A stretch of 20,000 nucleotides of DNA from an uncultured virus (IMG/VR IMGVR_UViG_3300031851_000010). Taxonomy: Duplodnaviria; Heunggongvirae; Uroviricota; Caudoviricetes. The DNA is taken from IMG/VR virus record IMGVR_UViG_3300031851_000010; one strand, 5' to 3'. This document shows, piece by piece, positions 1 through 19,560 of this stretch. Each line of letters opens with the position of its first letter. The stretch's first letter is position 1. The position numbers and the translations under genes are program-made. Below the pieces are notes generated by a model. That model was not told where the DNA came from and searched no databases. It was given only the letters and a program-made list of their open reading frames with translations.

Positions 1-1
1 T

Positions 2-3000
2 ACGGACACTGGTGGTTGGAAAGGTAGTACTCAAGGACTAAAAGGTAATCATGGTGTTGACGGTGATAAAGGTTTAAAAGGTGTACAGGGACCTGTAGGG
101 CCAACAGCTAATAGAGGTACAAGTGTTGATGGACCACAAGGTGATAAAGGTAGAAAAGGGTTAAAAGGTCTCAAAGGTAGATTTGGTACTATAGGTACTA
201 GTTGGGCGTTCCAAAATGATGGTGATAAAGGTTTAAAAGGACCACAAGGTCCAACATCCACTGAAGTGGGTCCGAAAGGTGAAAAAGGTAATCGTGGAGT
301 TCAGGGTGAAGAGGGTATTAAAGGTGCTATTGGAGATAAAGCCAGTCAAGGACCTGTAGGTTTACAAGGTTCAAATTCAGATAAAGGTATTGTTGGTGAT
401 AAAGGTAATAAGGGTTTAAAAGGACCACAAGGACCTAAAGGTGTCAAAGGTATTGAAGGTGAAAAAGGTAAAAAAGGTTCTTTAGGACCACAAGGACCAG
501 TTTCACAATCGGGTTCATCTGCGGATAAAGGACTTAAAGGACTTAAAGGTCTTCAAGGAACAAAAGGTCCGAAAGGTATTCAAGGTACTCAGGGATTACA
601 AGGACCAATAGCAAGTGTTGGTTCACAAGGACCCATAGGACCTAAAGGTCCAACAGGAGAAAAAGGTATAAAAGGGCTGATAGGTGTTAAAGGTCTTAAG
701 GGTGTGAAAGGTCTTAAGGGTGTGAAGGGACATAAAGGACTTATTGCTGTAAGTGGTGATAATGGTCAACAAGGTCCAACGGGGGCTCAAGGACCAATAG
801 GTTATAAAGGGGACAAGGGACTTAAAGGTCTTCAAGGAACAAAAGGTCCGAAAGGTATTAAAGGACCACAAGCCAGTACAACTACACAAGGACCACAAGG
901 ACCACAAGGATTACAAGGAATCACTTCAACAGATAAGGGTATTAAGGGTCAAAAAGGGTTAAAAGGTGTAAAGGGTTTAAAAGGTTTAAAACCTAATAGA
1001 GGTACTCAAGGAGGTATCGGTACACAAGCATCACAAGGACCTACTGGACCAACAGGACCTAAAGGTGATGATAAAGGTCAGAAAGGTCTAAAAGGTATTA
1101 AAGGTCTAAAAGGTAATAGAGGACCACAAGGACCTCAAGGTGCGATTGGTAATCAAGGTAGTATAGCCTCGACAGGTGACAAAGGTATAAAGGGTGTAGT
1201 TGGACCAACACCATTCAAAGGACTTAAAGGTCTTAAGGGTAATAAAGGTTTAAAAGGACCTAAAAATTCACAAGGTCCACAAGGTCCAACAGGTAATCAG
1301 GCGTCTATAGGTGATAAAGGTAATCGAGGTGCTACTTCAACCGATAAGGGTCTTAAGGGACCTAAAGGTTTAAAGGGTATTGAAGGACCTAAAGGACCTA
1401 TTGGGTTACAAGGTCCACAATCAAGTACAGGAACTGTAGGGGAACAGGGACCACAGGGTGACCAAGGACCACAAGGTCCAACTTCAACTGATAAAGGTAT
1501 AAAAGGACAAAAAGGTTTAAAGGGTTTAACTGGTGGACGTGGACCACAAGGAAGTGATGGTGTAAGAGGAGGTAAAGGACCGCAAGGGCCAACAGGTAAC
1601 AGAGGTAATATTGGTGTATCATCCGACAAAGGTAATAGAGGTCCACAGTCTGAGGAAAAAGGACTTAAGGGTCCTCAAGGCGATAGAGGTTCACAATCTA
1701 CTGATAAGGGTCAAAAAGGTCCACAAGGAAGTAGAGGGAGTCAAGCCGCACAAGGACCAACAGGACCGGCAAGTACCGATAGAGGTCCGGTTGGTAATAG
1801 AGGACAACAAGGAAAACAATCTACTGATAAAGGTCAAAAAGGTCCACAGGGACCACAGGGGGACCAAGCCGCTGCAGGACCAACGGGTCCACAAGGTCCA
1901 ACCAATGACACTAAAGGTCATAAAGGGTTAAAGGGTTTAAAAGGAGTTAAAGGTAATAGAGGTAGTCAAGGTCCAAGAGGACCACAAGGAGCAACATCAA
2001 CCGTAAAGGGGTATAAAGGTATAACCAGTACTACTAAAGGTATTAAAGGACAGAAAGGTTATAAAGGACCTAAAGGGCCAAGAGGTTCTGTTGGTAATAG
2101 AGGGGCACAAGGTGCGACATCAATAGTAAAAGGGGCGAAAGGACCAAATAATTCTGAAAAAGGGCTAAAAGGACTAAAAGGTTTAAAAGGGCCAAAGGGT
2201 AATAGAGGTAACCAAGGACCACAAGGTGTTAGAGGAGCCAATTCAACGGTTAAAGGGTTTAAAGGGATAGATAATACAACTAAAGGTCCAAAAGGTTTAA
2301 AAGGAGTTAAAGGTAATCGAGGAAATCAGGGGTCGCAAGGACCGCAAGGACCAAGAGGTTCAGCTTCAACTACACAAGGACCAAAAGGTCCAACTAATAA
2401 TACTAAAGGTCAAAAAGGTGCAGTTGGTGATTCAGGAATAAAAGGTGATAAAGGTATACGAGGACCGCAAGGACCAAGAGGAAATGATTCAACAGTAAAA
2501 GGATTAAAAGGACAGCCAAGTACTGAAAAAGGTTTAAAGGGACTTAAAGGGCCAAAAGGGCCGAAGGGTAATAGAGGTAATCAAGGACCTCAAGGGTCAA
2601 GAGGAAATGATTCAACAGTAAAAGGACCAATAGGACCGTCAAGTTCAGAAAGGGGTCTACAGGGTGTTAAAGGATTAAAAGGGCGAAAAGGGCCAAAGGG
2701 ACGTAAAGGTATTAAGGGACCACAAGGTTCTCAATCTACAGATAAAGGTCAAAAAGGTTTTATAGGTACAGATAAAGGTCTTAAAGGTCTACAAGGTAGT
2801 AAAGGACCTAAAGGAAATAGAGGACCACAAGGCTCACAAGGACCAAGAGGTCTACAATCTACAGATAAAGGTATAAAAGGTTATAAAGGACCAAGAGGTT
2901 CAAATGGACCAACAGGTCCAGGTGGGTCAAATGGGTCAGGTGGTCCAACAGGGCCAACAGGTGGTGGAGGTTCAAATGGACCAACGGGACCACAAGGACC

Positions 3001-3745
3001 AGCAGGTACTGAAAAAGGGTTAAAGGGTCTTAAAGGACTAAAAGGCCCTATTGAAAAACAAGGTAGTCAAGGACCAATAGGTCCGCAAGGTAATACTTCA
3101 ACAGTAAAAGGACCAACAGGGCCAATTGGTAATGACCTTGGACCAACAGGTCCAACAGGACCACAAGGTCCGGCAAGTACGGATAAAGGTCCGATAGGAC
3201 CAAAAGGACCAACATCAACAGTAAAGGGGGTAAAAGGACTAAGAGGGCCAATTGGTAGTACGGGACCAAGAGGAGGACAAGGAACAAGTGGACCACAGGG
3301 ACCGACAGGACCACAAGGACCGGCTGGTAGTGGTGGTGCGACAGGGCCAACTGGTGGACAAGGACCTAAAGGTCCAAAAGGACCAAGAGGTTTACAAGGA
3401 CCACAGGGACTACAAGGTCCAGCATCAGATAAAAGATTAAAAAATAATATTAAATCTTTAAAAGGTAATCTAAGTAAGTTAAAATTAATTGACGGTGTAA
3501 AGTTTACATGGAAAGGTGGGTCAACTAAATTTGAAAATAATTATGGTGAAGATTTTGGATTTATCGCTCAAGATATTGAAAAAGTTATACCTGAAGTTGT
3601 ATTTAATAGTGAGAGTGGTTATCTAAAACTTGAGTACGGTAAATTAGTTGCGATTGGTATAGGTTCTATACAAGAACAAAACACACGTATTGAAAATATA
3701 ACAGATAGAATTAACATATTAAAATCAAAAATTTTAAATGGGTAG
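2..3745 (+). CDS. Collagen-like fibre protein A with C-terminal peptidase S74 autochaperone; 5'-truncated
   Basis: Frame 2 is open from nt 2 ([20 protein letters not shown]...) into the GTG at 266, so 266 is not the real start. About 1130 aa of interrupted Gly-X-Y follow, then SDKRLKNNI...GVKFTWK...[15 protein letters not shown]...LEYGKL at 3425-3745. Stop is TAG. Confidence 0.9.
1988..2848 (+). repeat. Seven tandem 123-bp (41-aa) degenerate super-repeats within collagen A
   Basis: Units such as [17 protein letters not shown](GXY)8 and [17 protein letters not shown](GXY)8 were counted by hand as 41 aa each. Confidence 0.85.
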
Positions 3746-6700
3746 AGACATTAAAATAAATCCAACGGGTGGGACAATCAGTTTTTCAGGTACTAATAGT
3801 ACTATGATTAATATTGACTATAATAGTGGTGAATTAAATTTCAACACCCACTTAGGTAATGATTTTAAAATTACTTCAAACTTAGAGTTAGATAATATAA
3901 AGTTTATGCCGTCTGTTTCAGTAAAGAAAGAGAATAGTAACGAACTAATTGATGACTTAGGTAAGTGGAAGGGTTACCCTATGAATATGATTGGACCGAC
4001 TGGTACACAAGGTCCAAATGGACCTACAGGTCTTAAGGGTAGTAGAGCGGTTGATGGAGAAAAAGGTTTAAAAGGTAAAAAAGGTTTAAAAGGTATAACT
4101 TCTACTGAACAAGGTCCACAGGGTGACCAAGGTACTAAGGGGTTAAAAGGTATCAAAGGAGAAAAGGCTAACCAAGGACCTATAGGGCCAACAGGTGTCA
4201 AAGGTCAAATAGGTCCTCAGGGTAATACAGGACCAATAGGTCCGACATCTTTAAAAGGTCCAGTAGGACCACAAGGGTTTAAAGGTTTCAAAGGTAATAA
4301 AGGTATAAAGGGATTAATTGGTGACTCACTGAAAGGTCCTACAGGATTATCGGCGAGTAAAGGTAACCAAGGACCCACAGGTACTAATAAAGGACCAATT
4401 GGTCCAAAAGGTGAGGTAGGTGTAAAAGGACCTCAAGGACCAATTGGGATTACTGCAAATGTAGATGTTTATGTTTTCTATGACGCGACATCAATGCCAA
4501 GTGATAAAGCTAAAGAAGCTTCGCAGAGTGTTAGAGATTGGTTCCAAACGGTAAATGGTGATGGTGATATTAATAAACTATACGAGGGGGTAATTGGTAA
4601 AAATTCTCATAATGGTGAAAACTGGTTATGGTGGGCATCTTACCCATATCTTGGTTCACTATCCGGAGGTACCTTATCTGATAACACACAAATTAATGAA
4701 TTTAATAGTGCTGTACCTAATGCAACTTATCAATCTGATTATTGTAAGTCTAACTCAGGTGGTAATTGTGTACCAAGAAACTCACAATTTAATGATGGTG
4801 AAACGATATATAGAAGAATTAACAGAGGTGTTAATTTAGATACAGGTGCCGCTGAAACAATATCTCAGGGTGTACCTTTTGACCATAGTGATTTAAATAA
4901 TACGGAAACATCGGGACAAGGTTCATTTGGTGGTGATAATACTAACTATTTGGTAATTATTGTTGCTGATGAGTCAGATGGTCTTGTTGGTTTATATCAT
5001 GGACAGGTAGGTGGGACTAATAGTAATCCAACTAAGAGTGATTTGTATAATAAACCATTTGAATTAAATGGTAATTATTGGAATAATAATGCGGGTGATG
5101 AATATACGAATAGGTATTTACACGATTACTGTTCTTATGTTCAAGTATATGAAGATATTATATCCAATAGAGGGGGTAATGCTCAAGGTTTAGTTTATCC
5201 AGTTGTAAACCCACTTAGAGGTACTTCAACTTATGCGTTTGTTCAACATGCAGTAGCAGCAATTGAGGGTAGTACCATCACTAGTAATGAGTTTTTAAAC
5301 AGATATGGTGATAACATAACTTCAGTTGGTCCTGAAAACTTAAATTTAAGTGCATTAACAAGAACAAATGTATATTCAGGTTTAACGTCTGAAACTTGTT
5401 ATACAAATTTAGAAAGTAGTTTTAAAAATGGTTCAGGACTAAAACATTTTGGATTTGATGTTGACCCTACTGTTAGTAATTTTACGGAATCCGTTGTTAC
5501 AAACGCTTTAACGTCTTTTCTAAGACAACAAGGTGAAACTGGTGACGAAGGTAATAAAGGAATCGCTGGTGACGATAAAGGAACTAAAGGATTAAAAGGA
5601 TTAAAAGGATTAAAAGGTTTAAAAGGGGCTAAAGGACCTGATACCGATAGTGGAACAAAAGGTGTGGTAGGTGAAAAGGGACCTATCGGTGTTGATGGAC
5701 CTGTTGGTGATTTAAAAGGTCCAAAAGGTGAAGTTGGAGTTGTTGGACCAAAAGGTATTAAAGGACCTGATGGTTCCATAGGTGTTTCACCCAAAGGTCA
5801 AATAGGTCCTGATGGTGACCAAGGACCTACAGGTGGTAGAGGTGAAACTTCTACCGATAAAGGTGAAAAAGGTATTAAAGGTAGAAGAGGTAATAAAGGT
5901 CTTAAAGGTATTAAAGGTGTCAAAGGTCTAATAGCTAGCCAAGGAGATACGGGACCAACAGGTCCTCAATCCGATAAAGGTCTGACCGGTAATAAAGGTG
6001 ATAAAGGTCTCAAAGGTTTAAAAGGTCGAAAAGGATTACTTGGTCCACAAGGACCACAAGGAGCAATTGCTGACCAAGGAGCTCAAGGTCCAGTTTCACA
6101 AGATGGTGAGGGAGCGGATAAAGGTCTTAAAGGACTTAAAGGATTAAAAGGGTTAAAAGGTAAAAAGGGTATTGATGGGACAAAAGGACCTCAAGGGCCA
6201 ACAAGCCAAGGTAATGAGTTAGGACCTACAGGGGAAAAGGGTCAAAGAGGACCACAGGGAGATAAAGGTAATAAAGGTTATAAAGGATTAAAAGGTAAGA
6301 AAGGTGTTAAGGGACCTAAAGGACCTAAAGGTTTAATCGCGAGTCAAGGTGATGGAGGACCACAAGGACCAACGGGACCAGTGGCGGACCAAGGTAATAA
6401 AGGACTTAAAGGATTAAAAGGTAATAAAGGTTTTAAAGGGTTAAAAGGTTTAATAGGGCCTCAAGGAAATAAAGGACTTAAAGCCAGTCAAGGTGATGCG
6501 GGCCCACAAGGTCCTGAAAGTATCAAAGGGCAAAAGGGTTATAAAGGTATCAAAGGTCAAAAAGGTTATAAAGGACCACAAGGTAATAAAGGACCTAAAG
6601 GTTTAAAAGGGTTAAAAGGTGTTACTGGTGATAAAGGTTTAATAAGTGTATCTGCAGGTGACAAAGGAATTAAAGGTCAAAAAGGTTTTAGAGCCACTGA

Positions 6701-9059
6701 TGGTGATAAAGGTATAAAAGGTCAAAAAGGTTATAAAGGTCCAGATGGTAGTAGAGGTACTACTTCAACAGTTAAAGGTCTTAAGGGTCAAAAAGGTCTC
6801 AAAGGATTAAGAGCAACTGATGGAGTAAAAGGTAGTAAAGGATTAATAGGTATTAAGGGACCAAGAGGACCACAGGGTGGAAGAGGAACAACAACAGGTA
6901 CTGGTGGAGAACAAGGACCACAAGGTCCAACAGGTCCGGCAGCATTTAAAGGACTAAAAGGAATAAAAGGTTATAAAGGACCTAAAGGACCTAAAGGGCC
7001 GAAAGGAACACAAAGTACATCTCAAGGACCTACAGGACCTGGAGGAGATAATGGACCAACAGCCTATAAAGGACTTAAAGGTCAAAAAGGTATTAAAGGG
7101 GCTTATGGACCAAAAGGTCCAATAGGTTCAGCGACAGGAGATGGTGGACCTCAAGGTCCAACAGGGGATAATGGACCGACAGCATTCAAAGGGTTAAAAG
7201 GGTTAAAAGGACATAAAGGGTATAAAGGACCTAAGGGACCACAAGGACCATCAACTGCCGATGGAGGACCACAAGGTCCAACAGGTCCGGCAGCATTTAA
7301 AGGTATTAAAGGTAAAAAAGGGACTAAAGGACCTAAAGGATATAAGGGACCTTTAGGACCACAAGGAGCGACAACAGGTGTTGCTGGTGATAAAGGACCA
7401 CGAGGTCCTCAAGGACAGACAGGACCGACAGCATTCAAAGGATTAAAAGGTACAAAAGGTTTAATAGGACCTAAAGGACCGACAGGAAATCAAGGAACAC
7501 AAAGTGGTCCAACAGGTCCAACAGGTGCAGGTGGACCCGCAGCATTCAAAGGGTTAAAAGGGTTAAAAGGACATAAAGGGTATAAAGGACCTTTAGGACC
7601 ACAAGGAACTGGTAGTTCAGTTAAAGGTTATAAAGGAGAAAGAGGGCCAAATGGACCGACCGCTCAAAATGGTGATACAGGTCCAACAGGACTAAAAGGA
7701 CCAAAAGGTCCACAAGGACCGACAGGTCCTCAAAGTACTTCAAAAGGACCAAAAGGTGCTGTAGGTATTGGAGGTCCAGCCGCTTTCAAAGGACTAAAAG
7801 GTATTACAGGTGAGAAAGGTTTAAAGGGTCAGTTAGGACCTACAGGGCCAGCAAATAGTGATAAAGGTACTCGTGGTCCACAAGGAACAACTAATACAAC
7901 TAAAGGACCAAAAGGACCAAAAGGTCCACAAGGTGGTAGAGGTCCACAAGGTGGTAGAGGACTAATAGGTACCCAAAGCACATCTCAAGGACCGACAGGA
8001 CCAATAGGACCATTAGGACCAAAAGGTTTAAAAGGACATAAAGGAATTAAAGGTTACAAGGGCCCAAGAGGACCTCAAGGGTCGAAAGGGTCACAATCAT
8101 CTAAAACAGGACCAAGAGGACCACAAGGTCCGAGAGGTAATGCTTCTACAGATAAGGGTCAAACAGGTATCGCTGGAAATCCCGGACCACAAGGACCAAC
8201 AGGACCAAAAGGTTATAAAGGTTATAAAGGACCTAAAGGGTATAAAGGTCGACAAGGTGGTAGTGGTCCACAAGGTCTTCAAGGTCCACAAGGACCAAGA
8301 GGCCCACAAGGGTCAGATGGACCAGCAGCGTTATCTGGACCAACAGGACCAAAAGGTTTAAAAGGTAATAAAGGTATAAAAGGACCCACAGGTGGTGCGT
8401 TTTGTTTCGCTCATGACATTGCGGTAAGAGCAGGTGAAGATTGTGCGTATTGTAATGGTAGAAGTAGCCCATGTGGAGATAAGGTAAATTTGACTGTATA
8501 TAAAGGTGATATACAACCATTAGCTCAGGGTGATATCCTCTATACTGACCCAGATTGTAAAGATTGTAGAGAATTTGAGGGATTACCATGTATGAGAAAT
8601 CTATCTACAGATTTTATAACTATATGGGACGCGGTCAACTTAGGTGGAGTTTTATTTTCATGGGTAATTACACCACCACCTAAATCAGTAGTAAATGCTT
8701 GTGAAATATATGCTTGTGCCGATTGTAGGGCTTCTGATAGTAGACTTAAACATGGTACTAAAACATTAAGTGACTCTTTGAATAAGTTACTAAAAATTAA
8801 TGTTACGGAATATGATTGGAATGAAAATTATACAGGATATGACTTCTTAAAGGAAAGACAAAAATTACATTCAATTGGTATGATAGCACAAGAAATAAAC
8901 TTATTATATCCTGAAGTAGTTTATAGAAGGGATGATGGTTATTTAGCTATTAAGTATTATAAATTAAATGCATTAATTATTGAAGCGATTAAAAGTCAAC
9001 AAGTATTTATTGAAGACATAGAGGAACAAATAAACTGGTTAAGAACACAAATAGATTAA
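3738..9059 (+). CDS. Collagen-like fibre protein B (1773 aa): N-domain, collagen, vWA-like insert, collagen, Cys-rich domain, peptidase S74
   Basis: ATG overlaps the upstream stop by 8 nt. Gly-X-Y tracts flank a 359-aa globular insert (4455-5531). A 111-aa 10-Cys segment lies at 8400-8732, followed by SDSRLK...YDWN...GMIAQE...PEVV...IKYYKL from 8733. Confidence 0.9.
6933..7865 (+). repeat. About 40-aa degenerate super-repeats (GP[AT]A[FY]K anchored) within collagen B
   Basis: Spacings between GPxAxx units were counted as 40, 40, 37, 46, 37, 40 and 40 aa. Confidence 0.75.
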
Positions 9060-12000
9060 TGGCTAATATTATAATATATCCTACGGGAAGTACATTAAAC
9101 ACCAATCCACATATAATTTTTAGTGGTACAGGTGTTGATTATACTATTGAAATAGATACTACAGGTGATTTAGTATTTAAGTCTTCTACAAATATTTTTA
9201 AAATATCTGATAGTGCTACTCCATTATCATTACCAGGTGAGGTTAATGTTATTAATAGTGAACTTTATGTTGGTAGTATGATGGTAGTTGACTCTGGAGG
9301 TCATTGGGTTGGGCAGACAGAAGGTCTTAAAGGTCAAAAAGGTCTCAAAGGACTACAAGGTGTTGACGGTGATAAAGGTTTAAAAGGTAATAAAGGTATT
9401 CAGGGAATCGTTGGACCTACAGGTGATAAAGGTGACTTCGGTATCAAAGGTGGTATTGGTTCTGACGGAGAAAAAGGAATCAAAGGTGAGCTTTCAGTCA
9501 AAGGGGATAAAGGTAACCGAGGACCACAAGGTGAGAAAGGTATTGTTGGACCTAAAGGGTTAAAAGGGTTAAAGCCGTCAGACTCAACAAAAGGTCTTAA
9601 AGGACCAACAGGTCTAAAAGGGTTAACATCTTCAGATAAAGGAACTAAAGGTCCGACAGGTCTTAAAGGTGTTAAAGGAAATAAGGGTCTAAAACCTGAA
9701 CAAGGACCAAAAGGTAGTATAGGTGGTGATTCACCTCAAGGGCCAACAGGTTTAAAAGGGCCGACATCATCAGATAAAGGTCAAAAAGGACCAAAAGGTA
9801 TAAAAGGTGTAAAGGGACAAAAAGGTATTCTTGGAAATCAAGGTCCACAAGGTGATAAAGGTGTTAGGTCGACAGATGGGGATAATGGACCACAAGGACC
9901 AACAGGACCTACCGCTGATAAAGGACCTATTGGTAACAAAGGTATAAAAGGTCTTACAGGACCACAAGGTCCGCAAGGTCCTGATGGTATTGTAGGTGTA
10001 CAAGGACCTGATGGTGATTTAGGACCAAGAGGTCCACAATCTACAGACAAAGGTGATAAAGGTATCAAGGGTATTAAAGGTATCAAGGGTATTAAAGGAC
10101 CTAAACAAGGTAGAGGTGTAATAGGTACACAAGGTGAAAAAGGATTTATCGGACCACAAGGTCCAACAGGTCCAGGTGGACCAGCAGCCGTTAAAGGACC
10201 AATAGGTCCACAAGGACCGACAGGACCAAAAGGATTTGATGGAGATAGAGGGTTGCAGGGTGATTCACTAAAAGGACCTACAGGTTCTGGTGGAGATAAC
10301 GGACCTCAAGGACCGGCAAGTACTGATAAAGGTACGAAAGGGTTAAAGGGATTAATTGGTATCAAAGGTATTAAAGGATTAATCGGACCACAATCATCAA
10401 CTAGTTCAGGGTCACAAGGACCTACAGGTCCACAAGGACCAATTGGACCTGCAAGTTCTGACAAAGGTTTAAAAGGACCAGAAGGTACTAAAGGGTTAAG
10501 AGGACCACAAGGGCCTCAGGGACCTCAAGGTAATAATGAAAAGGGACTTATAGGTGATGTTGCCGTTGGTGGAGATATTGGACCAACAAATACAGATAAA
10601 GGACTACAAGGACCTACAGGTGATAAGGGACCTAAAGGTTTTCAAGGACCGAGAGGTACAATTGGTACTTCACCTAAAGGGGCGAGAGGAACACAAGGAC
10701 CAACAGGTCCAACAGCTGAAAAAGGTCCGAGTGGTACGTCCACAAATAAAGGTAATAAAGGTATCAAAGGTATCAAAGGACCGAAAGGTACAGATGGACC
10801 GAGAGGAACTATTGGAAATAGTATAACGGGACCAACAGGACCCAACGGACCAACAGGACCTAATAATGCCGATAAAGGACTTAAAGGTCCACAAGGACCA
10901 ACAGGTCCAACTAATACTGATAAAGGAACACAAGGACCAAAAGGTCCTAGAGGTAATCAAGGTGGACAAGGACCTCAAGGTCCGACAGGACCAAAGGGAA
11001 CTACCGGTGGACAAGGACCGACAGGTCCATCAAGTACTGATAAAGGTATTAAAGGGCAAAAAGGTTATAAAGGTACTAAAGGACCAAATGGCCCCACCGG
11101 TCCTACAGGACCAAAAGGTACTAAAAATACCACACAAGGTGATAAGGGACCATCTTCAACAGATAAAGGTTTAAAAGGTTATAAAGGACCAAAAGGTTTA
11201 CAGACAGGGAGAGGTACACAAGGGTCACAAGGACCTAAAGCATCTAATGGGGCAACAGGTCCTACAGGACCAAAAGGACCTGCAAGTACTGATAGAGGTC
11301 CAATAGGACCAAAAGGACCACAAGGTAATGATGGTAACCGAGGTCCCCAAGGTAGTGCGTCAGGTACAGGTATTCAAGGACCAACAGGACCCAAAGGACC
11401 GGCAGGTAATACTGCAGGACCAAAAGGAGCTATAGGTCCACGACAAAGCCAAGGCTCGCAAGGACCACAAGGTTCTAAAGCTAGTCAAGGTACTAATGGA
11501 CCTACAGGACCACAAGGTCCGGCAAGTACAGATAGAGGTCCACAAGGTAATAAAGGTATTAAAGGTGATTTAGGACCACAAGGGCCTAAGGCAACACAAG
11601 GTTCTGGTGGTGATACAGGTCCACAAGGACCGACAGGTCCATCAAGTACTGATAAAGGTAATAAAGGTTTAAAAGGTGGTCTTAAATCACAAACATCAGA
11701 TAAAGGTATTAAGGGTTACAAAGGGCCGAGAGCGGCAACGGGTCAACAAGGTCCACAAGGACCGGCAAGTTCTGTTAGGGGACCAGAAGGTAATAAGGGT
11801 CCAAGAGGGCCTCAGGGTTCACAAGGACCACAAGGACCTAAAGCTAGTCAAGGTCTTAATGGACCTACAGGACCACAAGGTCCGGCAAGTACGGATAAAG
11901 GTAATAAAGGTATTAAAGGTCCGAGAGGTGGACAAGGTCCACAAGGACCTACAGGTTATCAACCTGGACAAGGTCCACAAGGACCTAAAGGGGCTGTAGG

Positions 12001-13030
12001 TGCTGATGGTAATGAGCCAGGACCACGAGGACCCCAAGGACCACGAGGACCGCAAGGGCCTACAGGTCCACAAGGACCCAAAGCCTCTGGAGGGGCGACA
12101 GGTCCGACAGGTAAAGAAGGTCCGGCAAGTTCAGAAAAGGGACCAAGAGGAAATGTAGGTAGTCAAGGACCAAAAGGACCTAAAGGGTTCAAAGGTGGAC
12201 AAGGACCCAAAGGACCTAAAGGTCATAAGGGGAATACAGGGGAAAAAGGATTTAAAGGTCCAAAAGGTTACAAAGGTCCTAGAGGACCGCAAGGACCCCA
12301 AGGTTTAAAAGGACCAAGATTATCTCAAGGGTCAGGAGACGTAGGTGATACAGGACCACAAGGACCGGCAAGTACTGAAAAAGGTCTTAAAGGACCTAAA
12401 GGTCCTAAAGGAGCTAAAGGACCAAAAGGCCTAAAAGGACATAAAGGTTATAAAGGACCTAAAGGTCCAAAAGGTGTACTTGGTAAAGATGGACCACAAG
12501 GTCCGCAAGGTCCAAAAGGACCTACAGGTTCTGGCGGACCAACAGGGCCAGCAGGACAAAAAGGACCAAAAGGACTTAAAGGGATTAAAGGTAGAACCGG
12601 AGAAAAAGGTTTAAAAGGACGAACTTCAAGTCAAGGCTCACAAGGTATTCAAGGAACTCAAGGACCGGCAGGAGCCCAAGGTCCGGCGGGTTCTTTTTCC
12701 GATAAAAGATTAAAGGAAAATATTAAAAAAATTGATACACCTTTACAGAAAGTTTTAAATCTACGTGGTGTTGAATTTATATGGAAAGAAGAAAATCTCG
12801 ATGGTACCGTTTTACTTGATGGTGGTAGAAAAGATATTGGAGTTATTGCTCAAGAGGTAAAAGAAGTTTTACCTGAATTAATTGGTGGTTCAGAAGAAAG
12901 AGGTTATAAAGTTAGTTATGAACAATTAATCTCAGTATTATTTGAAGCAATTAAGGAACAAGAATTAATCTTAAAGGATAAAGATGGTGAACTAACTGAG
13001 TTAGAGGGAAAGTTTAAACGTAATCAATAA
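9059..13030 (+). CDS. Collagen-like fibre protein C (1323 aa) with C-terminal peptidase S74 autochaperone
   Basis: TAATG coupling. The N-domain resembles that of B (IxPTG...IxFSGT...DxxGxWxG). About 1125 aa of interrupted Gly-X-Y, then SDKRLKENI...GVEFIWK...[15 protein letters not shown]...VSYEQL from 12698. Confidence 0.9.
11276..12139 (+). repeat. About 120-bp (40-aa) degenerate super-repeats (GPASTD[KR] anchored) within collagen C
   Basis: [49 protein letters not shown] and GPASSEK recur at 40-aa spacing (once 41). Confidence 0.8.
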
Positions 13031-14069
13031 TCATATCATTTAAATACTTTTTAACTAAAGTATGGTCGGCATAATCATAATAACTTCTACTCATTGATGC
13101 ACCTTCAATTACTTCCTCAGTAATCATTTCTTTAGTGAGGTCTTCAAAGTCACCATAATAGTCAAATGCATTTCTATAATCATCTAATTGATAGTCATCA
13201 TTAAAAATTGAACTAAATAAAAAAGGTATGAATTTGGTAACTTCAATGATGTAGTTATATATAGTTTTCTCCTCACCTTTACTATTCTTTATGGTCTTAG
13301 ATTCCCAATCACCACTATTATCTATCTCCAATAAACTTCTAACTTCACTCATTATTTCATTATACTTTTCATCGGTATATGCTGTATTATATGAGTTATG
13401 GTGAAGTGAATATAAATTACTTGAAACTTCAGAAGCTTCATCTAATAAAACTTTAGTAGATGTTTCATCTTCTTCTAAAATATCCATTACTAACATAGGG
13501 TCTTTAACATCAACATAATCGGGGTGACCTTGGTCTTTAGCCATATTTTCTAATAACTCAGTTTCGGGTGAAATTTGAGTTCCTGATAATTCTTCAGATA
13601 TTGATTTGGCAAGTAAGAATTTATTTTTTTCATTTAACTCTTCAATAACATCGGTATACAAATTTTGAGTAACATCGCTAAATGGTTCGAACCAATCATC
13701 TTCACCTAAAATATTTTTAACCATTTCCGATGATGACATTTCACGATTACCGTCATCTGATTTAAAAAAAATACTTAAGTCTGACCTTTCACCAAGAGTT
13801 AAAAAATATTTATCACCTTTCTTAGTTATATCACTATAAGTGGAAACAATGTTATCGATAGTTTTTTTACGGTCATCAATATAACTCTTTCTTAGATAAG
13901 TCATTGGAAACATTTCAATAACACTTTCGTATGTGTCGGAGTTTTGAAGTAACCCAAACCTTTCTAACAAATCAAAAAAACTATCCTTATCTCCATTGAG
14001 ATAACGGTTGATAAAGTCTTCAACCTCACCTGAACCTCCCGATAGTATATTGATAATTTTTTCTTTCAT
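13014..14069 (-). CDS. Acidic hypothetical protein (351 aa)
   Basis: Long ORF in AT-rich DNA with ATG start and an upstream TATATTTAT motif. D/E/Y-rich, with no family recognised. Confidence 0.85.
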   Translation of the reverse strand: MKEKIINILSGGSGEVEDFINRYLNGDKDSFFDLLERFGLLQNSDTYESVIEMFPMTYLRKSYIDDRKKTIDNIVSTYSDITKKGDKYFLTLGERSDLSIFFKSDDGNREMSSSEMVKNILGEDDWFEPFSDVTQNLYTDVIEELNEKNKFLLAKSISEELSGTQISPETELLENMAKDQGHPDYVDVKDPMLVMDILEEDETSTKVLLDEASEVSSNLYSLHHNSYNTAYTDEKYNEIMSEVRSLLEIDNSGDWESKTIKNSKGEEKTIYNYIIEVTKFIPFLFSSIFNDDYQLDDYRNAFDYYGDFEDLTKEMITEEVIEGASMSRSYYDYADHTLVKKYLNDMIIDYV

Positions 14070-14085
14070 AACACGTTATTTACAT

Positions 14086-14094
14086 ATAAATATA
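14086..14094 (-). promoter_or_regulatory. TATATTTAT motif, putative phage promoter element
   Basis: Lies 16 nt upstream of the ATG at 14069, on the coding strand. The identical 9-mer precedes two neighbouring genes. Confidence 0.5.
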
Positions 14095-14119
14095 AAAAAA
14101 GGTGAGTTTTACCTCACCT
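14094..14119 (-). terminator. Rho-independent terminator downstream of the 43-aa ORF
   Basis: The minus strand reads AGGTGAG-GTAAAA-CTCACCT followed by a T run: a 7-bp perfect stem about 28 nt after the TAA at 14148. Confidence 0.75.
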
Positions 14120-14147
14120 ATTTACCCCAATCCCTTATTTTGTTTAA

Positions 14148-14279
14148 TTACTTCTTATCGTAATACTTTTCAACCGTCTTTTTGATGGCTTCTTTAACAG
14201 TTTGAGTGTTTGTACTTTTAACAGTTTGTGAACTTTGTTTTGTTTGGTTTTTGTTTTTGTTTTTACATCCGCATCCCAT
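14148..14279 (-). CDS. Small basic protein, 43 aa (MGCGCKNKNKNQTKQSSQTVKSTNTQTVKEAIKKTVEKYYDKK); absent from the ORF track
   Basis: Manual translation. It has its own upstream TATATTTAT motif and a downstream terminator. Confidence 0.75.
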   Translation of the reverse strand: MGCGCKNKNKNQTKQSSQTVKSTNTQTVKEAIKKTVEKYYDKK

Positions 14280-14310
14280 AGTTGATATTTTTTTAGTAAA
14301 GTTTATAATA

Positions 14311-14319
14311 ATAAATATA
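14311..14319 (-). promoter_or_regulatory. TATATTTAT motif, putative phage promoter element
   Basis: Lies 31 nt upstream of the ATG at 14279, on the coding strand. Confidence 0.45.
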
Positions 14320-14355
14320 AGTAACCATGAATTAGTGTAATAATCGGTTTTTATT

Positions 14356-14364
14356 TATATTTAT
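14356..14364 (+). promoter_or_regulatory. TATATTTAT motif, putative phage promoter element
   Basis: Lies 17 nt upstream of the ATG at 14382, on the coding strand. Confidence 0.5.
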
Positions 14365-14381
14365 GATAAAAGTACAATATT

Positions 14382-16001
14382 ATGAATCTTAGTCAAGTTT
14401 TATTAGAAAGTAGGAAGGATGATTTTTTAAGAATGTTTAGAGACAAGTTTTCTGACGAACAACTTAAAAAAGTTTTTACCCTATCTAGACAATTAGCCCC
14501 TAATCAAAAATTCCTTACATTTTTAGGTAAAGTTATACCTACAGAAAATTTTGATGAGAATTTAAGTAAAGCTGAAAAAGTAGTTGAGAAATTTATTAAG
14601 TACCAACAAGCTCTACAACAAAAAGATATTAATCAATTTAAAACTTTAGATGAGATAATAACTGCTATTAATAATCATGAGAATAAAGTTAGACGTACAG
14701 TTAAATCTGTTGATGGTGCTGATGTTGTTTATGAAGATGACCGATTTACGGTTGTAACTCCTCAAACACATAAGGCGAGTTGTTATTATGGTGCTGGTAC
14801 TAAGTGGTGTACTGCCTCTATGAATGGTTCTTCACATTTCGATAACTACAATGTAGATGGTAAACTTTTCTATATCTTAGATAAAAAAGCAAAAAGTAAT
14901 GACAAATATTATAAAGTGGCTTTATTACAAAAATATGATGGAGATAAAACATTCTATGATGCACCTGATAAATCTTTTAAAGATGGGTGGATATTAGGTA
15001 CTCCAGAATATGATGAAATTCAAAACGCGATTGATAAATACATTAATACTAACTACCAAAGAGAGATTAATATCTTTAAAGATAAAGAGGCGGCTAGACT
15101 TGAAAGAGAAAGATTAAGAAGAGTGGCTGAAAGACGTAGAATTGCTCAGTTAAGGGCTGATGCGGATGAAAGAAAAGAAGAGGATTCATGGAATTTAGAA
15201 AACGAACCTGACCAACAAGCGCTGGAGGCTAATGCGGTATTTGAAGTTATGGTTGATGAGTACGGCGTATCTGTTTTAGAAGAAGAAGGTGAGTCTATAT
15301 ATGATTTAATCCCGTCACAGTATAATCATTATGATTTACCAACATTTGAATGGGTAGGTGATGATGATACTGGAATAACCTTTGCTGTTGGTACGTGGGA
15401 TGAAGTATGGCAAGCGGCTAAAGAATATATGGAAGGACTATGGGATGACCAAGGGGCTGACGGATGGAGTAGCTCGTTTATTGAAAGTCATATTGATGAG
15501 CAGGAAGTTAGAGATTATTTTTATGATATGTTTGAAGATGATGTAAATAATAATTATGAATCATATTTTGATACAGACGAATTACCACTATCAGACGAAC
15601 AAGAATCTCAAGTAGCCAAATTAAAAGAAGAGGCAGAAGAGTTAGATGAGATAACTAGAAATGTAGATGACGTATATAATGAAGATGAGGTAGAATTAGC
15701 TGAAGATAGATGGAATGAAATAGATGATGAAATAACATATATTGAATCTGACCCTGAAGGTGAACCGACAGAGGAACAAATTGAAGATATGGTAAATAGT
15801 AGAGTTAATGATGTCATGTATGATATGATGGCTAGTATGACCGATTATGGTTTAGATATAAGTGACTATGTCGATAAAGATGCGTTATTTGAGTCAGCAA
15901 TTGATAGCGATGGTGTGGGTAATTCTCTTAGTAGTTACGATGGGTTAGATAATGAAGTAATGATAGGTGATACTTGGTTTCACGTTTTTAGAACAGAATA
16001 A
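14382..16001 (+). CDS. Phage hypothetical protein (539 aa): CYYGxGTKWCT domain, charged helix, highly acidic C-terminal domain
   Basis: KDINQF...VVYEDD...ASCYYGAGTKWCTAS is shared with the next ORF. An E/R-rich linker precedes a D/E-rich C-terminal half. Confidence 0.85.
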   Translation: MNLSQVLLESRKDDFLRMFRDKFSDEQLKKVFTLSRQLAPNQKFLTFLGKVIPTENFDENLSKAEKVVEKFIKYQQALQQKDINQFKTLDEIITAINNHENKVRRTVKSVDGADVVYEDDRFTVVTPQTHKASCYYGAGTKWCTASMNGSSHFDNYNVDGKLFYILDKKAKSNDKYYKVALLQKYDGDKTFYDAPDKSFKDGWILGTPEYDEIQNAIDKYINTNYQREINIFKDKEAARLERERLRRVAERRRIAQLRADADERKEEDSWNLENEPDQQALEANAVFEVMVDEYGVSVLEEEGESIYDLIPSQYNHYDLPTFEWVGDDDTGITFAVGTWDEVWQAAKEYMEGLWDDQGADGWSSSFIESHIDEQEVRDYFYDMFEDDVNNNYESYFDTDELPLSDEQESQVAKLKEEAEELDEITRNVDDVYNEDEVELAEDRWNEIDDEITYIESDPEGEPTEEQIEDMVNSRVNDVMYDMMASMTDYGLDISDYVDKDALFESAIDSDGVGNSLSSYDGLDNEVMIGDTWFHVFRTE

Positions 16002-17431
16002 TGAAGTTATTAAATTTAATAGAAGGTAGAAGAGAAGATATACTCAATCGTTTTGATGAGAACCCTGAGTTACGCAAAACAATAGAGGAGTTCTTAGACC
16101 ATGAATTCAATAAGAAAACAAATTATAAATATGTAAATTGGGTACTTAAAAGAAATTTTGATGACTTTGGTAATACAATTATTTCTTTAGATAGTGTAAT
16201 TAATTGGATTGAAAAATTTGATAGAGTAAGGAAAAACTTACAATACAAAGATATTAATCAATATAAAAACCTTCATGACCTTATCGATGCGTTAGAAGTT
16301 TACGGTGACACAAAAAGTGAAGAAAAAACTAAAGTAGAAGCGGGTACCTCAAAGATATATGAGGACTCTGAAGTTTTAATAGTTAAACCACTTACTCAAA
16401 AATCATCATGTTATTATGGTCAGGGTACCAAATGGTGTACGTCAGCCACATCTGGTGGTAACGCATTTAGAGCCTATAATGATAGAGGTCCTTTGTATTA
16501 TTTTATATTTAAAAATTTAAATAAAGATAATGATTATTATAAAATCGCCATTCATTATAATGTAGCTGAGGATAGGTACTCACTTTTTGATGCTAAAGAT
16601 AATTTTAATTCTAATCTGTTAGGTTTTTTAAAAACAAATTCAGCTTTCAATTCGATTGAAAAAGATATTGAAGAAAATCATAAAGTTGATGAATCTAAAA
16701 GTTTAGAGATTATGTTAATTAAACTTATTAGAGAAAATAAGTTTAATTTTAGTAAAATTAGAAAATATGTTTTATACGATAAGTTAGTTAATATAATTGG
16801 TGATGATAAAGGTACGAGACCACTTGTAGTCGGTTGGTATGGTGAAAAACGTATTATGATTAAAGTAAGTGATAACGATGAGGAAATAGAATTTAGGGAA
16901 TTAAGAAACAGTACTCCAAATTATGTTTATGATAGGAGACCTCTATATGAAATGGTAGAATATCTTGAGTCTAAATCGGACCCATATGATTTAGCACATT
17001 TATTAAGTCAAAATACTATACATACTAATTATAAAGTTATTAGAGATATATTTAATTTCTTTATTGAAGAATTACATGAAGAGTTAAGTGTGGGTAATCA
17101 AGAAGGTTTTAAGTTTTGGAACCCTGTAAACTCACATTCAAATTACCGTTTTGAAAGTAGAAATCCTGATAATGCTTACATTAAATTTTTAAATTATATA
17201 ACTCAAAAAACAAATGAAGGGGAACCAGCCAGTAAGAGAGATTTCTTAATTAATGTCTTAGAAAAAGACCCTGAAGACGTAGTATTTTCAGGATATCTCT
17301 CAACAATGTTCAGTTCAATGAAAGATGCTGGACTCGTTAGTCTTTACAGAGCCAATACTTCGCCTTATTTTAGGTACAGGCTTGGGCCCAACCACAGTGT
17401 TTGGGAAAAAGGAAGACTAAAGAGAATATGA
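16001..17431 (+). CDS. Phage hypothetical protein (476 aa), paralogue of the upstream gene at its N-terminus, with an unrelated C-terminus
   Basis: TAATG coupling. Contains KDINQY...KIYEDS...SSCYYGQGTKWCTSA. Confidence 0.85.
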   Translation: MKLLNLIEGRREDILNRFDENPELRKTIEEFLDHEFNKKTNYKYVNWVLKRNFDDFGNTIISLDSVINWIEKFDRVRKNLQYKDINQYKNLHDLIDALEVYGDTKSEEKTKVEAGTSKIYEDSEVLIVKPLTQKSSCYYGQGTKWCTSATSGGNAFRAYNDRGPLYYFIFKNLNKDNDYYKIAIHYNVAEDRYSLFDAKDNFNSNLLGFLKTNSAFNSIEKDIEENHKVDESKSLEIMLIKLIRENKFNFSKIRKYVLYDKLVNIIGDDKGTRPLVVGWYGEKRIMIKVSDNDEEIEFRELRNSTPNYVYDRRPLYEMVEYLESKSDPYDLAHLLSQNTIHTNYKVIRDIFNFFIEELHEELSVGNQEGFKFWNPVNSHSNYRFESRNPDNAYIKFLNYITQKTNEGEPASKRDFLINVLEKDPEDVVFSGYLSTMFSSMKDAGLVSLYRANTSPYFRYRLGPNHSVWEKGRLKRI

Positions 17432-18205: not shown

Positions 18206-18628
18206 ATGAGTAACATTAAACTTAAAAAACCTGACCATATTGTATGGGACGAAGAAACTCAAAAATATAACGCAAATATATTACCTTATGGGAGTAGCGT
18301 ATCGGCGCCCGTTATTAAAATAGAAGATATTTCATCCTACAAACAAAGGAATGTACAAAAGATACAGAAAAAATTCAATAAAAAATACCAAGAATTAGTA
18401 GATGAATATAATAATTTAGTTGATGAAGTTAAATTAAATCAAATAGTGTATGAGTCTAAATTTTCTTTTGAGCCGATAATAGGTCATATTTATTATCTTT
18501 ATTATGGAGATGATGGAAAATATTTCTTATCATTAATAGAACCTGAAATGTGGAATCAAGAATTTGTTCTAAGTGTTGAACTAAATTCTGAACATAAATG
18601 GGTCTTAATAAAAAAACCTCAAAACTAA
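18206..18628 (+). CDS. DUF2452-like protein
   Basis: The pattern KKPDHIVW..LPYGSSVSAPVI..SKFSFEPIIGHIYYLY..FLSLIEP.MW matches my recollection of DUF2452. Confidence 0.7.
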   Translation: MSNIKLKKPDHIVWDEETQKYNANILPYGSSVSAPVIKIEDISSYKQRNVQKIQKKFNKKYQELVDEYNNLVDEVKLNQIVYESKFSFEPIIGHIYYLYYGDDGKYFLSLIEPEMWNQEFVLSVELNSEHKWVLIKKPQN

Positions 18629-19560
18629 TGAAACTTCAAAACCCTATAGACGTTAATATTACAGATAAAACTGTATCAGTTCTTTTAGCGGGTGGTTTGG
18701 GTAATATGATGTTTCAGACAGCAACCTTAATGGTCTACGCTAAAGAAATGGGTTATGACCCAATTGTTGGTTATTGGACTACACATCAATCAGAGAGTTC
18801 TAAATTTAATAAACATCTTAATCGAAATGGTAGAAATATACATTTTGACCCATGGGGTGGACACATATTAAAAGACCCACATATATCATTTGGTGATGTT
18901 TACCCTAAATTACCGTGGTTCGATAGTAGACCTAATGCCTTTGAATGGTGGTTTGACCAAAGTTTAGGGTGGGATATAGATACTGGTGAAGGTGGAGTGT
19001 ACTACGATTTAAAACAAAAAGTAAAACCACCTTACCTATTTCAGGGTTACTTTTTTAATAAATTGTATTGGCATCACGAGAGGGATTATATTTTAGAAAT
19101 ATTCGAACCTGATGAAAATATAACAAATTATATTGAATACAATTATGGTAGTTTATTTAAAAATAGTATATCCTTACATCTAAGAATGGGTGGAGGTAGA
19201 CAAGATAATTTTTTTGATATAAAATTAATACCTGAAGAATGGGTTATTAAAATTTTAAATAATGAGAGTGAGGGACATAAAGTACTTGTGTTTTCAGATA
19301 ATTTAGAATCTGCCAAAAATTTCGTAAACAAATTAGGGTTTCCTAAGGAAAAGTTTGTTTATATTGATGAAGACCCGTATATTGCGGTTCATATGATGAG
19401 TATGTGTGATAAACACATATTATCAAATTCAACGTTATCATTTTGGGGTGCGTATCTTGATAAAAAACAAGAAAATGAGTATACTTTTATTCATGAAAGT
19501 TTTTTTGAAAGACATCCTTATAGTATGATACCTTACAATAAATGGAAAATTAATAATTAA
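18628..19560 (+). CDS. Glycosyltransferase family 11 (alpha-1,2-fucosyltransferase-like)
   Basis: GGLGNMMFQ, QGYF, SLHLR, VFSDN and MSMCDKHILSNSTLSFWGAYL are GT11 hallmark motifs. The ATG at 18628 (TAATG coupling) is preferred over 18598. Confidence 0.85.
   Translation: MKLQNPIDVNITDKTVSVLLAGGLGNMMFQTATLMVYAKEMGYDPIVGYWTTHQSESSKFNKHLNRNGRNIHFDPWGGHILKDPHISFGDVYPKLPWFDSRPNAFEWWFDQSLGWDIDTGEGGVYYDLKQKVKPPYLFQGYFFNKLYWHHERDYILEIFEPDENITNYIEYNYGSLFKNSISLHLRMGGGRQDNFFDIKLIPEEWVIKILNNESEGHKVLVFSDNLESAKNFVNKLGFPKEKFVYIDEDPYIAVHMMSMCDKHILSNSTLSFWGAYLDKKQENEYTFIHESFFERHPYSMIPYNKWKINN

Follow-up and report, generated by a model that had tools for sequence, protein, structure and literature searches.

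What holds three tandem collagen-like genes of a phage to one rod length, and could their products be the three strands of a single triple helix? The question is raised by a stretch of 20,000 nucleotides (nt), here called the window, from an uncultured virus of the Caudoviricetes (IMG/VR record IMGVR_UViG_3300031851_000010). Three long plus-strand open reading frames (ORFs), encoding the collagen chains A, B and C, fill window positions 1-13030. An initial annotation of the window had counted the residues of the three chains and proposed that they wind together. Comparison of the trio with related loci leads us to conclude that A, B and C are probably parts of the same fibre assembly, which may be a collagen of three mixed chains.

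Collagen-like proteins of prokaryotes and viruses are regarded as homotrimers, and the production of defined heterotrimeric collagens is described as an unsolved practical problem (review PMC8968730). The literature, searched at the level of titles and abstracts, yielded no description of phage collagens that form a heterotrimer or a length-locked trio.

Three overlapping genes encode collagen chains of equal rod length

The three chains follow a common plan: a beta-rich N-terminal domain (N-domain) of ~80 aa ending in a conserved Trp, a rod of interrupted Gly-X-Y repeats ~1,120-1,136 residues long and a Peptidase_S74 domain (Table 1). Pfam searches matched Collagen (PF01391) in A, B and C with E-values of 4e-98, 7e-105 and 6e-96, respectively, and Peptidase_S74 (PF13884) at their C-termini with 53.1, 38.1 and 62.1 bits (Pfam cut-off 22). 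PHROG collagen-like tail-fibre families also matched the chains strongly. Gly-X-Y runs hold 83-86% of the rod residues, and the breaks between them number 49 in A, 47 in B and 49 in C, with 31, 22 and 27 of these, respectively, shifting the Gly phase.

The end domains have diverged. The N-domain of full-length chain A shares 30-38% identity with its counterparts in B and C, and the S74 domains of the three chains show 37-42% mutual identity. The S74 cleavage motif, S-D-x-R-L-K, is nevertheless invariant in the A/B/C alignment (S16, D17, R19, L20, K21) and kept in orthologs, with the variants SDIRYK and SDRRLK in a more distant group of loci (clade 2, see below). It places a Lys five residues downstream of the cleavage-site Ser, the dyad spacing of the K1F endosialidase.

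The stop of A and the start of B overlap by 8 nt (ATGGGTAG), and the stop of B and the start of C have 1 nt in common (TAATG). Counted from the conserved Trp to the S74 Ser, chain A spans 1136 codons (nt 17 to nt 3425) and chain C 1131 (nt 9305 to nt 12698). Chain B spans 1589 codons from Trp77 to Ser1666, which become 1119 after subtraction of a 359-aa insert (residues 240-598) and a 111-aa tip (residues 1555-1665); chain A has neither a globular insert nor a tip. These counts reproduced those of the initial annotation.

Table 1. Features of the collagen trio in the window, and rod lengths of four trio types (residues)
Feature	Position	Strand	Description
Chain A	1..3745	+	5' end cut by window edge; full gene begins 232 nt upstream, 1325 aa
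Chain A, details	Trp 17-19; Gly-X-Y 17-3424; S74 Ser 3425-3427; S74 domain to 3742; stop 3743-3745	+	
Chain A super-repeat copy	1082..1504	+	~135-140 residues, collagen coordinate ~355-495; missing in L030; boundaries ambiguous within repeat
Chain A periodic array	1916..2872	+	Period 41 residues: 9 triplets + STVK-type break + 2 triplets + STTK-type break; collagen coordinate 633-951
Chain B	3738..9059	+	1773 aa; N-domain 3738-3968, Trp77 at 3966-3968
Chain B insert	4455..5531	+	Residues 240-598, 359 aa, collagen coordinate 163; vWA-like alpha/beta domain, AlphaFold2 (AF2) pLDDT 86.7, pTM 0.90
Chain B super-repeat copy	6030..6437	+	~135 residues (residues 765-900); missing in L030
Chain B cassette site	6207..6227	+	Six-residue break SQGNEL, ~residues 824-830, collagen coordinate ~386-388
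Chain B periodic array	6660..7871	+	Period 40 residues: 7 triplets + break + 4-5 triplets + AFK-type break
Chain B tip	8400..8732	+	Residues 1555-1665; small Cys-rich beta domain, 9 invariant Cys + 1 invariant His
Chain B S74 domain	8733..9059	+	Ser1666 at 8733-8735; stop codon 9057-9059
Chain C	9059..13030	+	1323 aa; N-domain 9059-9307, Trp83 at 9305-9307
Chain C, details	Gly-X-Y to 12697; S74 Ser1214 at 12698-12700; stop 13028-13030	+	
Chain C super-repeat copy	10298..10705	+	135 residues (residues 414-549); missing in L030
Chain C periodic region	11213..12142	+	Period ~40: 7 triplets + ASQ-type break + 4 triplets + STDK-type break
Window-type trio, rods A/B/C			1136 / 1119 / 1131
L016 trio, rods A/B/C			1097 / 1082 / 1086
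L025 trio, rods A/B/C			1056 / 1034 / 1043
L030 trio, rods A/B/C			840 / 830 / 831

The rod lengths co-vary in every complete trio

Related loci were collected with the chain B insert as a probe. The single sequence led to 8 IMG/VR loci; an alignment of B inserts, compared with metagenome contigs, matched 467 stretches and gave 88 relatives, 80 of which were kept, representing 78 distinct loci (L numbers are our locus labels). The family is common in marine metagenomes, and no GenBank phage matched either the insert or the N-domain of chain C.

In all 21 loci with an insert identity of at least 64% (L011-L031), the trio is present with its gene order A-B-C and its overlaps unchanged. Seventeen of them are complete, each with exactly three chains; the remainder are L014, in which B lies in three ORFs, and L023, L026 and L031, in which the contig ends within a chain. 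The L014 locus (9284-14609, on an IMG/VR contig otherwise identical to the window type) has its chain B in ORFs of 733, 582 and 430 aa, with A and C intact. This split could be a sequencing error or a broken gene. Similar frameshifts occur in L099, which was left out of the length comparison.

Rod length was defined by parsing rules of our own, as the distance from the Trp to the S74 Ser after removal of the N-domain, of non-collagen gaps >30 aa and of the tip. The 17 complete trios gave 10 distinct rod-length triples, from 840/830/831 to 1136/1119/1131. Inside a trio the spread was 1.2-2.1%, compared with a range of 830-1,136 residues (26%) among lineages, and the pairwise correlation was r = 0.999. 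Owing to their different inserted domains, the whole proteins vary widely in length (B 1476-1962 aa, C 1198-1409 aa); the rods alone match.

The lock extends beyond loci with the B insert. A search with an N-domain profile returned 118 representatives among 1.84 billion proteins, one of which, P0010 (337 aa), is complete, resembles chain A and has a short rod of ~150 residues. Scanning with P0010 gave 67 loci, mostly low-complexity collagen matches, of which four had a genuine N-domain match; the genomic locus of P0010 itself, with its partner chains, was not recovered among these 67. One further locus (L098) holds a trio without the vWA-like insert, with rods of 1060/1052/1053 residues. Clade 2, which is more distant, contributed L100 (1035/1032/1028) and L097 (1163/1159, the third chain being cut by the contig end).

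The initial annotation had anticipated that homologous loci would always come in threes with co-varying collagen lengths, and this was seen in every complete trio (the 17 loci, and also L098 and L100). Neither variable gene number nor uncorrelated lengths were encountered in these loci, and the contig held no fourth chain upstream. The source contig is a single sequence of 198,834 bp, with the window on its minus strand. We conclude that there is no fourth collagen chain because only A, B and C among its ORFs of at least 100 aa exceed 10 GxxGxxGxx windows; the listed ORFs upstream of chain A, including a carbamoyltransferase, have 0 such windows each.

Rods change by the same amounts in all three chains

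A tree built from the non-collagen ends of 14 A chains contained seven rod-length states. Rods of 1056, 1018 and 840 residues occur in A chains whose end domains are nearly identical, which shows that rod length is labile. In A, B and C alike, a period of ~40-41 residues, made up of 11 triplets and two breaks, covers the same part of the rod, and a super-repeat of ~135-140 residues lies at the same place. In L016, ~40 residues were lost per chain. From L025 to L030, the losses amounted to 137 + 82 residues in A, 129 + 80 in B and 135 + 80 in C. Within the first 320 rod residues, none of the chains and lineages compared had a net gain or loss at the coordinates sampled.

Gene conversion between the paralogs was considered as a cause of the matched indels. 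It does not explain the concerted changes, because the DNA similarity of the paralogs is scattered and non-collinear (63-72%, with a few short matches higher). Nor do we think it at all credible that the paralogs are equal merely through common descent and too little drift, with no selection on length. Such a view would draw on the collinear paralogs sharing the 11-triplet period and the super-repeat, but the rod length shifts by up to 26% between close relatives, in all three chains by the same amount, and the paralogs diverged anciently (end domains 30-42% identical). Comparison of these sequences thus indicates that selection holds the three rods to one length and that the length lock is real.

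Within clade 1, the rod deficit relative to A grew roughly with the number of globular domains carried. Chain B with 1, 2 and 3 domains was shorter than A by 8, 10-19 and 20-22 residues, respectively, and chain C with 0 or 1 domain by 4-11 and 9-13 residues. This trend fits total axial length as the matched quantity, for lineages that are not independent and with clade 2 off the trend.

Proposed assembly

With a probability of about 0.5, A, B and C are three different strands of one long virion fibre, an ABC heterotrimer of ~320 nm by the usual collagen rise. We give the same even odds to its more specific form, a heterotrimeric phage collagen in which an S74 heterotrimer selects the chains and adhesive modules sit on any one strand. 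Three co-encoded chains with equal-length collagen regions, as in the C1q and collagen IV heterotrimers, were indeed found. We infer the mixed trimer, its order of assembly, the self-cleavage and the place of the fibre on the virion as follows. The overlapping genes would be translated in about equal amounts. One A-, one B- and one C-type S74 domain would then associate at the C-terminus and nucleate the strands, and the three homologous N-domains would form the virion anchor at the opposite end. Self-cleavage at the conserved Ser would subsequently release the S74 domains. With both ends of such a fibre joined, the rods would have to keep the same length, and the gain or loss of a repeat in one chain would be tolerated only once the other two chains followed. 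The vWA-like domain, the lectin-type cassettes and the single Cys-rich tip would loop out of whichever strand carries them.

The trio may instead give rise to three separate homotrimeric fibres, A3, B3 and C3, each folded by its own S74 trimer and sent to one of three kinds of docking site, with the diverged S74 and N-domains keeping the species apart. This is a serious contender. The shared length would then have to come from equal baseplate "legs," from an external ruler or from three helices bundled laterally into a rope. The length data fit such fibres poorly: flexible rods of ~240-330 nm with ~50 hinges should not need a contour-length match of 1-2%, and the lock holds through at least four concerted changes, in two clades. 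The flanking genes keep their lengths in L030; as their size is independent of that of the rods, none of these neighbours acts as a ruler. Bundling would be opposed by the repulsion between rods whose chains each have a net charge of ~+100 to +130.

Adhesive modules move between chains

The chain B insert was modelled as a vWA-like alpha/beta domain (Table 1). Nearly all top rows of the VIA-align comparison were vWA, integrin beta-I or VWF-A structures (Z 8.3-7, with ~150 of the 359 residues aligned), the resemblance extending over the entire model, whereas Foldseek matches were weak (E-values of at least 0.018) and no Pfam family matched at E <= 0.1. The metal ion-dependent adhesion site (MIDAS) motif is D-x-S-x-S after the first strand of a vWA domain; no canonical MIDAS was found in the insert, which reads D-A-T-S-M in the window and D-G-T-S-L in the consensus. 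Among the distant loci L032-L096, the 11 examined have the vWA-like domain inside single non-collagen proteins of 775-3600 aa. Such single giant fibre proteins would speak for homotrimers. Four of the distant phages with this domain (L064, L078, L081, L083) also carry, in tandem, genes with Gly-Ser-Ser / Gly-Thr-Ser repeats that differ in length, which we set aside as another family, without the N-domain or S74.

vWA, PA14 and LamG/pentaxin are domain types found as insertions in other proteins. At the chain B cassette site, relatives carry, by Pfam, either PA14 (L020:9935-10498) or pentaxin/LamG (L025:11753-12430). Inserts of 188 aa, the length of that in L020, occupy this site in L021, L024, L028 and L029, and inserts of 219 aa in L027 and L031. 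Chain C has an insert of 173-174 aa in L025 (17182-17700), L027, L030 and L031, at rod coordinate 643 (508 in L030). This insert matched PHROG 19691, "virion structural protein" (E 3e-16), and its 173-aa form had no Pfam match.

The Cys-rich tip of chain B is a candidate receptor-binding end. Its identity to more divergent lineages is only 35-40%, and its AF2 model (pLDDT 69, pTM 0.63) is a small beta domain that matched no known fold (best Z 4.7). Exactly one tip was present in each of the examined trios in which a B-type chain could be read. Globular domains are never found on the A chain of clade 1, which nevertheless follows B and C in length.

In clade 2 (L100:2424-14115 and L097:2108-13863, with a 184-nt gap between chains 1 and 2), the end domains are shuffled. 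Chain 1 combines an A-type N-domain with a 164-167-aa insert, a Cys-rich tip and a B-type S74. Chain 2 joins a C-type N-domain, the first half of which is a separate 46-codon ORF (L100, ~6898-7038), to an A-type S74. Chain 3 has a B-type N-domain and an S74 that is C-type by eye, partly present and unscored. Where both ends could be typed, each trio thus has one N-domain and one S74 of each type, with the pairing permuted between the clades. The module-bearing chain varies accordingly: it is B in the window, also C in L025, L027, L030 and L031, and the chain with the A-type N-domain in clade 2. The view of the initial annotation that only B displays adhesive domains therefore held for the window and failed for the family, given the C insert of four relatives and the clade 2 tip on the A-type N-domain chain.

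The length lock, the single tip per trio, the tracking of bare chain A, the presence of one end domain of each type and the movement of modules between chains support the mixed helix. With separate homotrimers, two of the three species would be bare rods after the S74 cut, in every lineage, and the move of the tip from the B-type to the A-type anchor in clade 2 would re-home the receptor-binding end. A need for three mutually orthogonal S74 types would, on the other hand, let homotrimers also account for the presence of one of each per trio.

Breaks, register and charge

Several observations weigh against a single ABC helix. In collagen IV and C1q, helix interruptions are largely in register between the chains, but this was not found in A/B/C. 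The coincidence of breaks between chains was at chance level (unit-shuffle tests mostly P > 0.03). In a rigid common register, all three chains are in Gly-X-Y runs at 61% of positions, equal to the product of the single-chain fractions; no offset within +/-6 exceeded 0.64, and the mean over all offsets was 0.608 +/- 0.013. A mixed helix would have a median unbroken stretch of 7 residues and 19% of its length in stretches of at least 12 residues, as opposed to 73-81% in each homotrimer. Drift-tolerant alignment revealed weak collinearity, with z of only 0.8-2.8 for most pairs. All chains are strongly basic (net +130, +131 and +102) with no complementary charge pattern, and cross-correlation of the charge profiles gave no lag-0 signal beyond the oscillation of the 41-residue period. 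The chain C insert site lies away from breaks in A or B (distance 7-11).

The length data also contain points of this kind. There are small unmatched indels: by coordinate 400 in L025 and L031, B had lost 7 residues and C 2, with A unchanged. The ~135-residue deletion at an equal position can be explained by the direct super-repeats that flank it in each chain; equal position is thus weaker evidence than equal amounts, because these repeats partly explain it. The collinearity of the chains may be inherited in part from an ancestral gene. Lastly, the N-domain profile search showed that the N-terminal motif heads many non-collagen, single-gene fibre proteins. Characterised S74 proteins are homotrimers, and the same is stated of the characterised prokaryotic collagens (PMC8968730).

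The separate fibres A3, B3 and C3 gain what the mixed helix loses here: independent breaks that leave most of the length of each homotrimer in long runs, the lack of charge complementarity between chains, the single-gene fibre proteins with the N-terminal motif, and the homotrimeric state of the relatives so far described. What the initial annotation had proposed, lengths constrained because the chains form an ABC triple helix, was consequently borne out as to the shared constraint, whereas the single helix as its cause was not supported by the breaks, which are independent, or by the charges.

The length lock and the independent break positions would be reconciled by a partly mixed assembly, in which the chains join only at the N-domains or S74 domains, or in another stoichiometry such as A2B, with no regular ABC helix. 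We regard this as improbable: nothing points to it specifically, and the 1:1:1 gene layout with one end domain per type suggests no other stoichiometry.

In favour of the mixed helix, both B insert sites coincide with breaks in A (distance 0-1), and the second also with a break in C, a coincidence that was not significant over all six site-partner pairs. Two further comparisons did not separate the readings. Agreement of the Gly phase was dropped as non-discriminating, since a one-residue slide of a chain always restores the stagger. Counts of "triplet levels" were not clearly superior to residue counts in matching the chains.

Genome and neighbourhood of the trio

The genome of this uncultured marine virus is, by its predicted gene content, that of a large contractile-tailed phage: PHROGs matches included tail sheath, tail tube, baseplate hub, major head protein, large terminase and prohead protease. 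The PHROGs scan covered 119 of 175 ORF references, the longer ORFs being chosen, and nine ORFs crossing locus borders were left out. The best identity of the major capsid protein to cultured phages was 42% (a Microcystis phage and Flavobacterium phages), and 45% to an uncultured record. A 534-aa protein (L006:4279-5880, plus strand) has a CHU_C type IX secretion signal domain (E 5e-13) at its end, which hints that the host may belong to the Bacteroidota. The window differs from the genome contig at three bases (16340, 16345 and 19881), none of them inside the trio.

Opposite-strand genes bracket the trio, one of 288 aa upstream and one of 351 aa at 13014-14069. The trio is followed by two paralogous proteins of 539 and 476 aa (PHROG 17056/28193; region 13014-17431), with a third paralog of this pair elsewhere in the same genome (L004:11201-13114). 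The 13014-17431 neighbourhood is kept across clade 1, and its gene lengths are constant where the rods shorten. Further downstream, at 18206-19560, lie a DUF2452 protein and a GT11-family glycosyltransferase.

A GT17, a sulfatase, a carbamoyltransferase, a DnaJ and a glutamine-synthetase-like gene were found elsewhere in the genome, whose predicted set of glycan-related genes is unusually rich. A 475-aa protein is encoded ~9.8 kb upstream of chain A and on the same strand as chain A (L010:5189-6616, minus strand of that locus). It combines a PF25342 GT_PLOD domain (E 1.7e-73) with a match to the PHROG 2-oxoglutarate (2OG)-Fe(II) oxygenase family phrog_61. This PLOD-like protein is a candidate collagen lysyl hydroxylase/glycosyltransferase, the phage rods being rich in Gly-x-Lys. 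Two further small 2OG oxygenases are present (L005:7069-7665 and L007:14316-14942).

Comparison with known systems

The K1F endosialidase and the T5 L-shaped tail fibre exemplify S74 proteins, and like these the chains have a C-terminal PF13884 domain with the Ser...Lys motif S-D-x-R-L-K. A fast-evolving tip directly before S74, as in chain B, is likewise a trait of S74 fibres. Those fibres are single-gene homotrimers, whereas here three tandem paralogous S74 chains have locked rods, and two of them run collagen straight into S74, with no distal domain.

The closest working analogy for a mixed trimer is complement C1q, whose A, B and C chains come from three clustered genes. Both systems have three neighbouring paralogous genes with collagen regions of equal length, and in both the C-terminal domains could select the chains. 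These are gC1q domains there and S74 here, without any sequence relationship; the single break of C1q coincides among its chains, whereas the breaks here are out of line.

Mimivirus has collagen-like proteins together with a PLOD-type enzyme, L230, and resembles the present phage in this combination of viral collagens with a PLOD-type (here GT_PLOD) enzyme. The present virus differs in being a tailed phage of bacteria, with chains that have S74 chaperones and a length lock; we know of no description of either feature for the mimivirus collagens.

With Scl1/Scl2, BclA and the collagens of E. coli prophages, the trio has in common Gly-X-Y rods between non-collagen trimerisation or anchor domains (PMC8968730; PMC3368898). 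These proteins are one-gene homotrimers according to PMC8968730, as opposed to the length-locked trio described here. The rods of the trio are moreover 3-10 times longer than those of bacterial and prophage collagens, with ~49 breaks each.

Implications

If the three chains do form an ABC helix, this would be the first mixed-chain collagen outside animals. Nature would here offer a system that uses small, exchangeable end domains to set both the choice of chains and their register. Phages would have solved chain selection with a self-removing domain of ~110 residues, which would be useful for the design of recombinant heterotrimeric collagen. If the chains form three separate fibres, a length lock of 1-2% over a 26% range would be an unexplained rule of virion architecture. 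The cassette-like exchange of lectin-type modules and the fast-evolving tip bear on the host choice of these phages.

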